From assembly GCA_037141195.1 (NCBI GenBank), contig JBAXCZ010000001.1:36683-100682 (forward strand): a stretch of DNA of 64,000 nucleotides. The letters run 5' to 3'. The position numbers are program-made. The stretch comes from Clostridia bacterium. GTDB taxonomy: Bacteria; Bacillota; TC1; JBAXCZ01. How positions within the stretch are numbered: the stretch's first letter is position 1; every line of letters begins with the position of its first letter. Shown one piece after another: positions 33,001 through 54,000 of the stretch.

Positions 33001-36000
33001 TTCATTAGCGCACCACAAGAGTTTGGCTATCGCAACAAAGTTACCTATCACTTAGAATGGCGAGGAGCAAAGTTAGTTATAGGATACTTTGGCTTTAATA
33101 GCAATACCCTAATTTCTATTGACCGTTGCCTCTTAGTACCAAAAATATTTGATCAAATTAGTAAGGCTTTTTTGGAAATCCAAGGCAAACAGGAAAAGCG
33201 TGCCAGTTTTTCAGAGCTTACCATAAGACAGGTGAGCAATGGACAAATTATGCTCTTAATTACTGGTAGCAGAGCAGATACGGCTGGGGCAAAACAAATC
33301 ACAGAAGCCTTAGCAAAAGACTATCCAGAAATAGTAAGCTTCTATTATGTTGCTGAGCATAAAGGACTAGAAAGCTACTACCATATTGGTGGCGCAGAGC
33401 ATTTAACAGAAATTATTGGTGGCTTGGAGTTCCAACTTGATGCACCAACCTTTACCCAAGTTAATTATCAACAAATGCAAACCCTGTATCAGCTTGCATT
33501 AGAGCAAGCACAAATTGGGAAAGAGGACTTTGTTTTAGATCTTTATTGCGGCATGGGTAGCATCACCCTACTTGCAGCCCAAAAAGCACAAATTGTGCTA
33601 GGCATAGACAGTGTGAAAGCAGCTATTGGTGCAGCTCAAGATAATGCCATCAAGAACAACATCCACAATGTTAGCTTCCATAGCGGTAGAGTAGAGGTAG
33701 AACTGGACTTCTTACAAAAGCATGTACCGAAAAATAGTATTATCATCCTAGATCCACCCCGTAATGGTTGCGAGCCAAGAGCACTCGAGGCTATTATGGC
33801 ATTAGCACCAAAACGCATAGTCTATATCTCTTGTAGCCCAAGCACCTTAGCAAGAGATGTAAAATATTTTCAAGCACAAGGCATGAAGGTAGAAAAAGTG
33901 CAAGGTGTGGATATGTTTCCAAATACCGGCCATGTTGAGGCGGTTACTTTGCTTACAAGGAGCAACGCGACGCGGTAGGCAATTAGTACCACCCATGCAC
34001 AGTCTGCCCGAGAAAATGAGCATAGCGAAGTTTGATTGGTCGCAGACCACTTCGGAGTGTGTGGTGAAGTTAGAAAAGCGATAAACATAGTAATATCGAT
34101 AGATTAAGCCACTGAGTGTATAAATAACATTCAGTGGCTTTTGTATTTGGGAACATATCTACTGCTCATTCGACAGATTTAGTGAGGTTTATTAATGAAG
34201 TAAATGTTTTATAGTTTAACGTCTAAACCTGTATATCTGCTGAAAAGCATTCACTAGTCCATCTAAAATGAAATCACTTAAACCTTCGTCTGCTTGACGA
34301 TGATTTTCATTAGCTATATAATCTGTGTATAATTAATGTGCCTAATGTTTGAATCATTAACATTAATGGTAATTTGAAAGAAAAAACTTGTTTGATATTG
34401 AATGATGGATACAAAAGCAAAGGAGATTATAATACAACAGTGCAATTTAATTCATTCATGGAGGTTTGCTATGAACATGGATATACAGAAATATAATTTA
34501 TCTCTTTCTGAAATAGATCAAATAATTTGCAGTCTCTTAATGAATGAAATTGATGGGAATTTTCCAGAAATGGTGAGCAAAATCTGGCATGGGAGTCCTG
34601 TCTGGTTTTTAGACGACAATCCGATTGTTGGTTATTGTAAACTTAAAAATCATGTCCAATTACTGTTCTGGAGCGGACAGACTTTTAATGAAGAGGGGCT
34701 AAAATCTGTAGGGAAATATAAGGCAGCCGAAGTATGGTACACAAATCCTGATGAAATAAATGTGGATCAACTAAAGCGATGGCTTATTAAATCAATTGAA
34801 ATTCAATGGGATTATAAAAATGTTGCAAAGCGAAAAGGTGTCTTACAGCGACTTAAGTAAGAGCAGGATTTGTTGATAATCTCTATGTGGATATCATAAA
34901 AGGTATGGGTGTTGAAGTATTTTTGAAATTAGATTCCGGTTAAGTCATATCATCAGAAAGGAGAATTTAATATGATTACTGTATCTACCAAAGTAAAAGG
35001 GTCCTTAGATAGCATATGGGACCATTTTACGAGCCCTGAACATATCATCCATTGGAGTTTTGCTTCAGAAGATTGGCATTCACCTTGGGCAAAAAATGAC
35101 TTGCGAGTAGATGGAAAATTTACGACGCGAATGGAAGCCAAGGACGGCAGTTTTGGATTTGATTTTGAAGGGATTTATGAGGCAGTTGCACCTTATAAAG
35201 GTTATACGTACTCACTTGAAGATGGCCGAAAGATTATTGTCACTTTCGAGGAAGTAGATGGCGGTGTCATTGTTCGTGAAGATTTTGATCCTGAAACTGA
35301 AAATACCCATGAGCGTCAACAATATGGCTGGCAATGTATTTTAGATAACTTTAAGAAATATAGTGAATCATTGGCTATATGAAGTAGCCAATGATACAAA
35401 AATCAATTGTGGAGGTGTTTATGCAAAAAATTGTACCTCATTTATGGTTTGATACACAGGCTTTAGAGGCAGCAGAGCTCTATGCCAGTTTGTTTGATGA
35501 TTCAAAAATTTTGAATACAACAACACTCATCGGCACACCATCGGGGGATGCACAGACTGTGAGCTTTCAACTAGCCGGCATCGAATTTGCAGCGATTAGT
35601 GCCGGCCCGATTTTCACATTCAATTCTTCAATTTCTTTAATGGTGGCGTGTGAAACAAAAGAAGAAGTGAATCGGTTATATGATGCACTGATAAAAGGTG
35701 GAAGTGAGTTAATGCCACTAGATACTTATGATTTTAGTGGGTGGTATGCCTGGATAAGCGACAAATACGGATTGAACTGGCAAATCATGCTGGTTGAAGA
35801 GCTACATGCACATAAAAAAATAAGACCCTGCCTATTATTTGGAATGGAAGTGTGCGGTAAGGCACAAGTAGCTTTGGATCTTTATGTGAGTGTTTTTTCA
35901 GAATCAAAAGTTGGATATGTAAATTTTTATCCCGAAGGTGGCGCAAATGATATTCGGGCAAAAATTAATTATGCAGAGTTAGAGGTCTTTGATCTTGAAA

Positions 36001-51000: not shown

Positions 51001-54000
51001 TGTTTTTAACGATAAGCTTGGATAATATTGACAACTCAAGACACCCATGCATAGCCTGACCGAGAAAACGAGGATAGCGAAGTTTGATTTGTCGCAGACC
51101 ACTGCGGAGGCGGTAGTAAAGGTGGAAAGAAGATAAAATATTATAGCAATAGCTTAAGCTACTGGGTGTATCAATGACATTCAGTGGCTTTTGTTTGCCA
51201 TGTAGTAAGTTATGTAGAAGTAGTTGCTTTAATCGATATACCGCTATCGGAATAAAATTGACATTATTCCGATAGCGGTATATAATTTTTTTGAGGTGGT
51301 ATCGATGAAGTATACTAGTACAAAAGAAGCAAGTGAAAAATGGAGAATAAGTGATCGTAGAATTCGAGTGCTTTGTAATGAGAGGCGTATTGAAGGTGCT
51401 ATAAAAATTGGTCGAAATTGGTCTATACCTGCTGATGCTGCTAAACCTACGGATGCAAGGGAAACTAGTAAGAAAAATTACATTGGATTAGAATTTGATT
51501 TCAGTTATATAGATTCACTTAAAGAAGCTATCGACAAACACAGACCTTTTTCCAAAGGACTTGCTAATTCCTTGCAACAGAAACTCATTGTTGAATGGAC
51601 ATATAATAGCAATGCCATAGAGGGGAATACTCTGACATTGTCAGAGACAAAAGTTGTTCTTGAAGGAATTACCATTGGTGGAAAAAGCATGGTGGAACAT
51701 CTAGAAGCAATTAACCATCGTGAAGCTATCCTTTTTGTTGAAGATATAATTGCTAATAAGGAACCACTTTCCCAGTGGAATATTAGGAATACCCATGCTT
51801 TGATACTGAAAGAAATAGACAATACCAATGCTGGCAAATACCGGAGCGAAAATGTAGTAATCAGCGGCGCTGAGCATATTCCACCAAGCCATTATGAAAT
51901 AAATGATTTTATGCAGCGCCTTGTTGCAGAATATCGTGATGAATGGCAGGCTTATCATCCAGTTATAAGAGCAACACTTTTGCATGGAGAGTTTGTAAAA
52001 ATTCATCCTTTCATAGATGGAAACGGAAGAACATCCAGACTTTTGCTGAACTTTGAATTGATGAAGAATGGATACACACCTATTATTATAAAAAAAGATC
52101 ATCGTGCAAAGTATTATGAGGTATTAGATTATGCTCATACTACAATGGATTACAGTCCGTTTCTTAAATTAATTTCAGAGTTAGTTGTTGAATCTGAAGA
52201 GCTATGGTTATCATTGCTGGAGTAGTGTGAAATCCCATGAGAAAAATCAAGAAAATATCTGTCAATGAATCATTTAAAAGATAAAATTGATTAAATATGA
52301 AAAATAAAAGTAAAGCAAATCAGTGAAAGTCCTCATGGATGGCATATAAACAGTTGGGTAAAGGATTGAGTAATAATATGACCAAAGTAAAGGCTAAGAA
52401 AATATTTGAGCAATACAACCCTACATCTGACATCGTCCGTTGCCCAAACGGGAGGGCAAGCGTCCGTAAGCTGCTTGATACTTATGCAAGTGCGGCGGTG
52501 AACCTCTATGGCATCATCAGCCGTGATGATTTTCTTGATATTTTTAACAATCGAAATGGTGATCAAACCAGCAATGAGGAGATGTATATTCTCCTCCTAC
52601 CACTTGTGTTAAAAGAAGGCTGGTACGGTTTTTATAAAGAATACTTAGTGCATTACTCGTTTTTCAATGACTTTGAGCAAGCAGATTATTTACTGAAATA
52701 CCAAGCGGATAAACCACGCTATCTACCCGAAAAAAACGAATTCCTTGAAAATACAACTGAGGATTACTTAGAAAATGATTACTGGTGGAATGTACGAAAT
52801 TTTATGTGGGATGTATTCGGCTATAGCAAAGACACCTCGAAAGGCTATGAAGAAGTAAGGGGTTTTATAATATACGGAGATGGTATGCAGAAATTGGGAG
52901 CCATACTAGACAAGTATAAGCTTATATTTAACGACGAGAAACAGTTTATGGAGTTTATAAACCTGATTATGCTTGCAAAAAACAACACTCGCATCTGGTA
53001 AAACAAGAGCTATACGCCGTCAGAGCTTTTTGAGATTTCTAGCAAACGCGATAATAATATTGTTAAGTTTCCAACATTGCAAAGAGCTAAAGTCGAGCGT
53101 AACGAACCATGCTCGTGCGGAAGCGGTAGGAAATACAAGAAATGCTGCGCTATAATAAACGATGAAAAACAGCTCAGTTAAGCTCTGAAGAGTGCAGACT
53201 TTTCTATGAGACCTGGTTCGGATTAATGGGCTTTGTCAATGACTGGAAGGGGGTAATCAAAGCCAAAATCAAGCCGGAATATCCCAACGCCGTCAGTGAT
53301 ATGTTGATACACAAAGTAAGAGAAGTGCTGTGGGATAATCAGGAAATGATAGACGAATATATTAGTGACACAGAACTTCCACAAGAGAGAATAGACATTT
53401 TGAAGTCATGGAGAACAAATCATATAAAAAGAATGATTATTCTTTTAGAGTATCAGACAGAATACGCCGTTGCAATAACTCATAACGCACAGGGTGAAGA
53501 TAGGCTATACGGAATAAAAGGGATAAGCAGTTCAATAGCAAACGCATTGCGGCGAGACTTGCCCGCGCAGATTGAAACCGTTTTGCTCCCATTCAAGGGT
53601 AAGATTATCTATGACAGCTTTATGAGTTCCATGTCAATAAGCTATGGGGAAGGTGTTAGGGCAGCTTTTCGTGAGATGCATGATAAAGCAATAAAATATG
53701 GAATTATTACAAGCTTAGAATAAAACAAAGTATATGAACTTAATCTAACATCTTTCTAATGCTTGGAAGGGTAAAAAAGGTGTATATAGAAAGGGGTAGT
53801 TGTATTTACATATAGGTATGTCATAAAAATACACGATATAAAGACTGAATATATTGCTTGATATTCACCAGTAAAAGCAGTATAATTGCTTTAGGTGGTG
53901 AAAATATGATAAAAAATACAGCAATGCTAATGGATGAACTAAATAAATATGTAAATCCGACAGCCAAAATCCGTCGACTCGTCGATGCAGGACAATTAAT

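Follow-up and report, generated by a model that had tools for sequence, protein, structure and literature searches.

Downstream of rlmD, the gene of a 23S rRNA U5-methyltransferase, the genome of a Clostridia bacterium (GenBank assembly GCA_037141195.1, contig JBAXCZ010000001.1, positions 36,683 to 100,682, a stretch of 64,000 nucleotides hereafter referred to as the window) probably contains a decayed array of integrative elements accreted in tandem at the rlmD/rumA hotspot. A direct repeat named R1, which occurs close behind rlmD (copy R1-A) and again, 17 kb further, behind a GGDEF gene (copy R1-B), would correspond in both places to the same type of junction between neighbouring elements. 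The array starts at a GA dinucleotide inside rlmD (33937) and not at R1-A, and it probably runs on past R1-B, beyond which no right-hand boundary was found. The coordinates of the features are collected in Table 1.

According to this interpretation, successive integrative elements would have entered at the GA of the GAG codon in the motif ...DMFPxTxHVE..., 9-13 codons before the rlmD stop, via recombination of the large serine recombinase type. The left arm of each incoming element would restore an rlmD-like tail, a stop codon and a terminator, and the previous tail would be pushed downstream and joined there to the right arm of the incomer. The left half of R1 (R1-left) would thus be the right arm of one element family, which at the GA meets the K unit, the gene-restoring left arm of its neighbour. 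R1-A would be the joint of a collapsed 118-nt element remnant (a new rlmD tail plus R1-left) with the next element, and R1-B the joint at which the final segment of the 17 kb, closed by the GGDEF gene, meets an element starting with a Fic gene. Other relics, the R2 units, would be joints of the same kind made of a second right-arm family and an "N-type" tail. Recombinase and transfer genes would have been lost from the window, leaving cargo genes between relics of attachment (att) sites as remnants of the type of the cis-mobilizable elements (CIMEs). The participation of a serine recombinase is suggested by the position of the joints, by the recombinase genes found beside R1-like units elsewhere and by the literature, and the order of the insertion events is presumptive.

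Table 1. Features of the rlmD-associated array (positions in the window).
Feature	Position	Strand	Composition or basis
rlmD (23S rRNA U5-methyltransferase), intact	32659..33978	+	Pfam TRAM and tRNA_U5-meth_tr
Target (B) arm encoding VDMFPNTGHV, with putative GA crossover (33937-33938) in the GAG codon	33907..33938	+	homology breakpoints, published GA crossover
118-nt unit between two GA points	33937..34054	+	T-type tail and stop codon (to 33978), spacer 33979-33993, R1-left 33994-34054
R1-A	33990..34145	+	last 4 nt of spacer, R1-left, GA, K-type tail, terminator
R1-left copy A, conserved arm, probably of an element, with imperfect hairpin/palindrome of ~46 nt	33994..34054	+	seven copies in five hosts; conservation ends at GAG
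K unit copy A	34055..34162	+	tail GAG..TAA 34055-34084 (ECVVKLEKR*), spacer, hairpin 34106-34140, inverted rlmD target-arm 20-mer 34143-34162
Third K unit, left-truncated	37432..37519	+	spacer remnant, hairpin 37456-37500, inverted target-arm 20-mer 37498-37517
R2-a	38961..39194	+	second-family right arm 38961-38998, GA 38999, N-type tail HVEAVILMSRVNK* (to 39034), terminator, shared downstream sequence
Stray target-arm relic ATGGATATGTTCCCAAGAAC (MDMFPKN)	40731..40750	+	profile and pattern scans
R2-b	40837..41074	+	same build as R2-a, GA 40874, tail YVEAVVLTSRVNK* (40868-40909)
R2-c, more decayed third R2 copy	43228..43386	+	nhmmer E 8.5e-13
R1-B	51042..51195	+	CACC and R1-left (51046-51106), GA (51107-51108), K-type tail EAVVKVERR* (to 51136), hairpin 51156-51190
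Fic gene, directly after R1-B	51296..52225	+	ORF (open reading frame) and Pfam; own palindromic promoter 51236-51283

Exchange of the rlmD 3' end

The elements known to target rumA insert after the GA dinucleotide of a GAG codon located 11 codons from the end of the gene, as described in five species; they are flanked by 2-bp repeats, carry at their right end a serine recombinase fused to the rumA tail, and also occur in tandem (PMC4120198). The 3' parts of rumA and of the integrase gene are reciprocally exchanged, with repeats of 2-21 bp (PMC4701971), and decay into CIMEs combined with tandem accretion is the standard account of such arrays (PMC5704250).

In the window, the last 13 codons of rlmD, from 33937, form a replaced tail, the T-type tail (EAVTLLTRSNATR*). 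An rlmD orthologue on a 2-kb contig (L041, 85% identical) is collinear with the window up to GGCCA(T/C)GTTGAG and unrelated thereafter, with HVECVILMQRSGVKGEK* against HVEAVTLLTRSNATR*. This orthologue is the sole close relative of the gene in the databases searched, all others being 38% identical or less, and the best relative among the species-representative genomes (32% identical) was of no use for synteny. The T-type tail and the module downstream of it also stand behind the rlmD of another contig (L047), whose gene is 35% identical to that of the window, and the K-, N- and T-type tails all occur as natural C-termini among the RlmD homologues. An insertion point at the GA of GAG, some 9-13 codons ahead of the rlmD stop, is found alike in L041, in seven R1 copies and in Acetoanaerobium noterae, and the exchange of 3' ends is visible in the displaced tails ECVVKLEKR* of the window, ECVIGMQRKDT* of L047 and ECVVGLRKIK* of A. 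noterae. Some RlmD homologues (P0157, P0159 and P0180) possess C-terminal extensions of about 20 to more than 100 residues beyond the HVE motif, and the two longest (P0157 and P0159) might be examples of the element-fused tails known from vanG-type elements.

The R1 repeat pair

The two copies of R1 align over 155 nt (33990-34144 and 51042-51194) with 82.6% identity and a single 2-nt indel (gapped blastn against the window, E 2.7e-38). The repeat search of the window yields 82% identity over 96 nt for 33990-34085 versus 51042-51137 and 87% over 52 nt for 34093-34144 versus 51143-51194, in agreement with the sequence-only reading, which had located both copies and estimated about 80% identity over some 95 nt. 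Since the rlmD and GGDEF ORFs end at 33978 and 51025, respectively, the distances of 11 nt and 17 nt between stop codon and repeat given there are also correct. Each copy consists of two halves joined at a GAG codon. The shared terminator hairpins, likewise anticipated, each combine a 14-bp stem with a T run behind it (folding z-scores -5.5 for R1-A and -4.5 for R1-B) and represent the top terminator-like sites of the + strand between 33 and 52 kb, the operator palindrome of Fic excepted. The third hairpin copy proposed inside the interval is real but weaker than the R1 pair (73% over 41 nt, 37432-37472, E 0.003), its kinship being strengthened by a 3' flank in common, an inverted target-arm sequence which is absent from R1-B. 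The R1 segment had been described as open in only one frame; in both copies two of the six frames are open, namely the frame in question and its exact antisense. Base composition along the window shows no step at the R1 boundaries.

The pair had been taken for the attL/attR-type boundaries of one element, i.e., a single 17-kb element in the manner of the tRNA islands, with the whole 155 nt as a long att core, R1-A as attL and R1-B as attR. Direct repeats in the same orientation indeed bracket accessory-type genes, and a Fic orthologue lies downstream of an R1-like unit in a further contig (L038) too, which would fit an ancestral rlmD-R1-Fic arrangement. However, no integrase of any type is present, the longest exact stretch common to both copies measures 16 nt, with divergence distributed across the whole unit, both copies share the same hybrid structure with a family-wide breakpoint at GAG, four more tail relics of the same target occur in the interval and suggest a stepwise gain of sub-segments, the accessory genes go on past R1-B, and Fic is 80-86% identical at unrelated loci in many taxa. 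Moreover, a serine-integrase event leaves few shared bases and R1-A and R1-B have the same polarity and build, so the pair does not represent the attL and attR of one element, an explanation which appears highly improbable. A single serine-integrase element being flanked by only 2-21-bp repeats (PMC4701971), the long repeats are read as junctions between neighbours, and both the R1 copies, with their 155 nt in common, and the R2 units display the arm, GA and tail build of such junctions. A tyrosine-integrase island with a long direct-repeat att core was discarded on account of the missing integrase and of the short exact stretch.

The R1-A and R1-B joints look like separately formed members of the same families and not like a recent internal copy, because R1-left A is about equally close to the copies of other hosts (~86%, hand count) and to R1-left B (88.5%), and because the terminator shared by their K parts is otherwise on record from A. 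noterae alone.

The right half of R1 and the K unit

Among the peptide and DNA searches of phages and plasmids, the only useful match was that of R1-A in the plasmid collection (blastn, 77% over 96 nt, E 1e-7 in 7.3 Gb), the matching record being a 2.6-Mb replicon of A. noterae. In this replicon an intact rlmD ends with HVECVVKLEKR*, followed by the K-unit spacer, the terminator hairpin and the 20-nt flank as they occur in the window. The K units of window and A. noterae are 79% identical, non-coding parts included, as compared with 49% (background) over the next 100 nt, and the two RlmD proteins are 33% identical. The K unit of A. noterae forms the left end of a clean 7.7-kb insertion, where a serine recombinase gene truncated at its N-terminus comes next. 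At the insertion's right end, ~7.7 kb downstream, the sequence reads ...GGTCTTCACGACATCATTTTTGTCTACTCAAGGCACGTG/GAG/TGCGTGGTGGGACTACGGAAAATCAAATAG, i.e., an arm and the displaced tail, and the insertion is bounded on both sides by ...GTG/GAG. The right arm is, by eye, identical at ~36 of 38 positions to the arm left of the GA in R2-a.

Its place at the left end of this insertion identifies the K unit as a left arm with which an inserted element restores the gene, and not as a native gene end. By its sequence, R1 has in its right half a true rlmD-type 3' end, terminator included, which was borne by an element and is not the original gene end of this host. The methyltransferase-like C-terminus previously attributed to R1 accordingly holds for the right half, which matches the intact rlmD end of A. 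noterae, but is unsupported for the 61 nt on the left. The tails had also been considered as more decayed relics, whereas both retain an open tail and a stop codon.

An inverted rlmD target-arm 20-mer (GTAGATATGTTCCCAAATAC) directly follows the terminator in three of the four K units (the two window copies listed in Table 1 and L042, 8095-8114), and is closer to the L041 allele than to the rlmD of the window itself. An origin of the terminator hairpin from an att core was considered and found unsupported by local alignment, the significance being limited to the 20-nt flank.

The R1-left arm

Relatives of R1-left were collected with a profile of the two R1 peptides run against 1.8 billion representative proteins, with a DNA-pattern scan and with later look-ups. 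The profile retrieved three tiny ORFs with the motif MHxLPxKTSxAKFDWxQTTAE. The exact pattern GCGAAGTTTGATTNGTCGCAGACC gave no match in the viral and genome collections and was too strict in hindsight; a looser pattern gave no viral and three metagenome matches. The homologue search with P0001 returned P0001 itself as its sole match. Altogether, seven distinct copies of the 61-nt R1-left are available from five hosts, most of the related loci being short metagenome contigs. Conservation spans from CATGCA to the GAG codon, where all copies end and the conservation ceases.

The surroundings of these copies are rlmD ends or relics thereof. L047 possesses an intact rlmD ending with EVVTLLTRSVETK*, followed by a spacer (GCAAAGTAACCACC), an R1-like unit and the second tail ECVIGMQRKDT*. 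L034 contains an intact rlmD, one partial and one full R1-like unit ~300 nt downstream, and another rlmD relic 7 kb off. L026, L037 and L038 show an rlmD 3' fragment (HVETVVMLTRSEATK*), a 15-nt spacer and one or two R1-like units, and L032 and L036 contain target-arm fragments (VDLFPQTT, LDMFPRTS), an HVE...* fragment and an R1-like unit, with a truncated serine recombinase gene 128 nt beyond. The GA-to-GA spacing, measured from the HVE codon to the point where R1-left ends, amounts to 116-118 nt in the window, L047, L026 (twice), L032 and L037, and the window and L047 units are 77% identical, as compared with 52-56% for the gene bodies. The module composed of T-type tail, spacer and R1-left thus follows the HVE codon of two rlmD genes 35% identical to each other, and recurs in relic arrays; the right half likewise occurs behind the unrelated rlmD genes of the window and A. 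noterae, so that both halves of R1 have moved between unrelated genes.

That the whole 95-nt R1 segment consists of the decayed last ~30 codons of rlmD, duplicated by a segmental duplication without site specificity, would agree with a loose resemblance of FDW-SQTT-SE to VDMFPQTTHVE, with the FSHT found at the matching place of the A. noterae RlmD, with the open frame retained in six of the seven copies and with the duplications that do happen in the array. In opposition to this view, a profile of the RlmD C-terminus, derived from 113 homologues and applied to every six-frame fragment of the window, places R1 at E values of 11 and 68, aligning only the eight residues after GAG, as compared with 1e-3 to 0.08 for the other relics, and leaves R1-left unrecognised, as does Pfam. 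Pfam and NCBIfam gave no methyltransferase match with the R1 peptides either, and tblastn of these peptides against the window did not match the neighbouring rlmD end. In addition, R1-left is ~86% identical between hosts whose rlmD tails are ~69% identical (hand count on alignments) and whose post-GAG sequences are unrelated, which points to a separate history for each half. Unrelated rlmD genes also show an identical left edge and the 116-118-nt spacing. A decayed rlmD origin of the left half, as formerly proposed, is thus abandoned, and such a duplication must be regarded as improbable. R1 as a small conserved protein was equally rejected, the host-to-host changes being nearly all non-synonymous (hand comparison), no ribosome-binding site being visible by eye, and the frame being shifted in L047.

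The 116-118-nt unit might conceivably derive from a serine-integrase element as a miniature form that lacks the enzyme but is still mobilized in trans, in the manner of the miniature inverted-repeat transposable elements (MITEs). Entering unrelated rlmD genes at the GA of the HVE codon, it would each time rewrite the last 9-13 RlmD residues and add a structured 3' untranslated region (UTR), a proposal to be held with much reserve. L026 and L037 differ by one unit, the boundaries of which fit recombination between repeats and not an exchange at GA, and therefore provide no evidence for present mobility. The host of L037 and L038 has a different element at the same junction as L026, with a group II intron reverse-transcriptase/maturase ORF (L037 12487-13905, L038 2826-4244) ending ~300 nt ahead of the rlmD-relic junction.

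R1-left as a possible structured RNA

A conserved structured RNA had been mentioned as the alternative to an integration relic, and the results are divided in this respect. No Rfam family matches R1 at gathering scores or at E values up to 10, spurious hairpin matches aside, and the single-sequence folds of the 97-nt R1 segment are unremarkable (z -2.0 and -1.7) and unlike between the two window copies. In contrast, the left half forms a consensus hairpin of 19-21 pairs in which 93% of the cells are paired over 6-7 copies and 4-5 pairs are changed on both sides. The observed level of covariation was reached in one of 500 shuffles, and slid controls remained far lower; most of the changes are due to the two most divergent sequences.

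R1, or at least its left half, might accordingly be a functional structured RNA or cis-acting 3' UTR hairpin (e.g., a stability or processing element), its link with integration being secondary. Several one-sided changes yield G-U wobbles workable only on the + (mRNA) strand (hand count), and each window copy, starting 11-17 nt behind a stop codon, closes with a terminator, so that R1 would be transcribed as a 3' UTR. Against this reading, besides the missing Rfam match and the ordinary single folds, nearly all compensatory changes are contributed by L034 and L047 and so represent few events, all seven R1-left copies lie at the same position relative to the GA junction inside rlmD-end arrays (as far as a small sampling and narrow pattern scans allow), and a palindromic protein-binding DNA site would produce the same symmetry. 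An RNA role as the primary explanation is considered unlikely, although the hairpin may still have some function at present. The sole Rfam match of the window is a malK-I RNA (RF03069) at 7688-7862 (+), with 94.7 bits against a gathering score of 60.3.

R2 units and organization of the array

The junction reading finds a counterpart in the R2 units, the three copies of which had been correctly placed inside the 17 kb. Outside rlmD itself, the RlmD C-terminus profile matches R2-a (E 1e-3), the inverted arm at 34143-34162 (E 0.011), and R2-b together with the direct arm at 40731 (E ~0.07-0.08), and the arm fragments are upheld by pattern scans and shuffles. With nhmmer, the R2 units match the true rlmD end and terminator of L034 and a relic in L028.

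From left to right, the array begins with the rlmD target arm and the GA at 33937, followed by the 118-nt unit (T tail and R1-left) and the GA at 34055, K unit A and the genes from DUF1801 to glyoxalase. The left-truncated third K unit precedes the SOUL gene and a gene with a metallo-beta-lactamase fold. Then come an arm with GA 38999 and N tail a, the DUF1214/DUF1254 genes and the stray arm fragment, an arm with GA 40874, N tail b and three genes, and N unit c with eight genes, the last being the GGDEF gene. R1-left, the GA at 51107, K unit B, Fic and onward complete the order. Owing to the R2 relics, the third partial K-type unit, the stray target-arm fragments and the absence of any recombinase gene, the 17 kb is read as a composite island of decayed, tandemly accreted elements, which upholds the idea of a composite island at an integration hotspot already put forward. 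An integron attC array, for which same-strand small genes and imperfect hairpins could be invoked, was dismissed since no R''/R' core motifs are visible, as judged by eye, and the units are rlmD tails.

Gene content and the missing recombinase

All genes of the 17 kb are located on the + strand. They comprise DUF1801, AHSA1, PhnB-like, DUF1761, glyoxalase, two SOUL, metallo-beta-lactamase fold, two sets of DUF1214/DUF1254, DUF7000, FMN reductase, DUF3089, metallophosphoesterase and GGDEF genes, and Pfam detects no integrase, transposase or transfer gene among them. The large serine recombinase gene expected at an element end is missing from the window, in accordance with decay but such that the array does not qualify as an active element. 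At the related loci, truncated serine recombinase genes adjoin R1-like or K units in L028-L032 and in A. noterae. Those of L029 (1-2180), L032 (1959-2990) and L042 (8083-9047) are all N-terminally truncated, two of them being cut at the same point (..DAKGE..), and L029 contains two copies facing away from each other.

Several observations weigh against the accretion array. Neither tblastn with two serine recombinases nor Pfam detected any recombinase gene or fragment in the 64-kb window, and the recombinase genes of the related loci are N-terminally truncated, end with stop codons of their own and would at most be candidates for the responsible enzymes. Among the copies found, R1-left is nowhere joined to an integrase ORF, and no full-length protein with an R1-left tail occurs among the 1.8 billion representatives, which leaves position and distribution as the grounds for its putative origin as an element end. 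The decay of the relics is not ordered by distance from rlmD. The same arm/tail combination appears twice (R1) and even three times (R2), which segmental duplication could explain (cf. the SOUL paralogues at 98%). Finally, an empty site, with rlmD directly followed by Fic, was not found in any relative, and all same-species contigs carry the same arrangement; the comparison of relatives for 34146-51041 missing as a unit, which had been suggested beforehand, accordingly yielded no same-species contig devoid of the island.

Beyond R1-B, the accessory-type genes continue with Fic, AbiEi/AbiEii, Imm5-like and PadR. Fic probably opens the element that comes next in the array. Its orthologue in L038 (489-1480, 80% identical), downstream of the R1-like unit, is followed by a recombinase-like fragment recognised by eye and unverified. 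The gene possesses a perfect TTGACA-17-TATAAT promoter within a palindrome with a 20-bp stem, which travels with the gene, and over 100 clusters of Clostridia and Bacilli (including L039 and L040) share the protein with 80-86% identity, at unrelated loci without R1. It looks like a widely transferred, self-contained gene, and the adjacency of R1 and Fic is therefore weak evidence of synteny or of an empty site.

Other features of the region deserve mention. The SOUL haem-binding genes at 37611-37910 and 48846-49145 are 98% identical over 300 nt, as compared with ~80% for the other repeats, their upstream regions differing by a 45-nt indel, which indicates a recent duplication or gene conversion inside the array. 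The segment 36729-36834, between DUF1761 and the glyoxalase gene, is 82% identical to 42661-42766, the 5' end of an AHSA1-like ORF (42653-43081), and is probably a gene-fragment relic. The DUF1214/DUF1254 genes consist of two overlapping ORFs at 39298-40544, in the order 1214-1254, and of one fused ORF at 44341-45756, in the order 1254-1214. The stretch 53858-55969 encodes, as defence or addiction genes, an AbiEi-like antitoxin paired with an AbiEii toxin and, behind this pair, an Imm5-like immunity protein. A SCIFF peptide and its maturase are encoded upstream.

Comparison with known systems and significance

The closest parallel is offered by the rumA serine-integrase integrative and conjugative or integrative and mobilizable elements (ICEs/IMEs) of Firmicutes, e.g., the vanG elements, ICE-r, ICE_..._rumA, IME_SpnAP200_rumA and CTn5 of C. 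difficile. They use the same target gene family as the window and enter it at the same place, the GA of a GAG lying ~11 codons ahead of the stop. There too, the methyltransferase tail is replaced by element sequence, the displaced tail continues an open frame coming from the element's right end, and tandem occupancy occurs. In contrast, the window is devoid of integrase, conjugation and mobilization genes, and its new tail comprises 9-13 codons and a stop instead of the ~115-codon fusion of the vanG elements. R1-left is joined to an integrase ORF in no copy found, the recombinase genes of the related loci having their own stops, and the hosts are uncultured Clostridia and Peptostreptococcales, not streptococci.

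The window also resembles the CIMEs and tandem accretion of the ICESt1/ICESt3-type islands (Pavlovic 2004 and Bellanger 2011, as reviewed in PMC5704250), in which att junctions are kept, integration and transfer genes are lost, and repeated att-type sequences separate segments piled at one target end. In the window, six tail relics with arms stand between cargo genes, without mobility genes. The classical CIMEs, however, depend on tyrosine integrases and have true direct-repeat att cores at a gene 3' end; in the window the enzyme would be a serine recombinase, and so the repeats would be arm-plus-tail junctions rather than a shared core. As in the island arrays of tRNA and tmRNA genes, an insertion renews the 3' end of its target while the former end persists downstream as a relic, so that copies of the target end come to stand in series. 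However, the target in the window is a protein-coding tail with its terminator, and the relics are of different types (K, N, T), every element having brought a mimic of its own. The analogy with MITEs concerns the 116-118-nt unit only, which is very short, consists of just the two ends of a larger element and occurs in several genomes without an enzyme; it differs from them by the lack of terminal inverted repeats and of a transposase-type target-site duplication, and its mobility is putative.

The building of islands by successive insertion is already known, and the finding is real but fairly ordinary. Novelty might come only from the 116-118-nt unit and the conserved hairpin, since the unit, if the proposal is true, would represent a MITE-like class for serine integrases. 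Knowledge of the rumA/rlmD hotspot comes mainly from streptococci, enterococci and C. difficile; the window shows that environmental Clostridia, which are poorly sampled, make heavy use of it as well, and presents such a site after long decay, with cargo genes (detoxification-type, GGDEF, Fic and the AbiE toxin-antitoxin pair) split by recognisable arm-plus-tail joints. For annotation, these joints give exact boundaries for islands which have no integrase, and the replaced RlmD tails explain the abrupt differences in the last residues among close orthologues.

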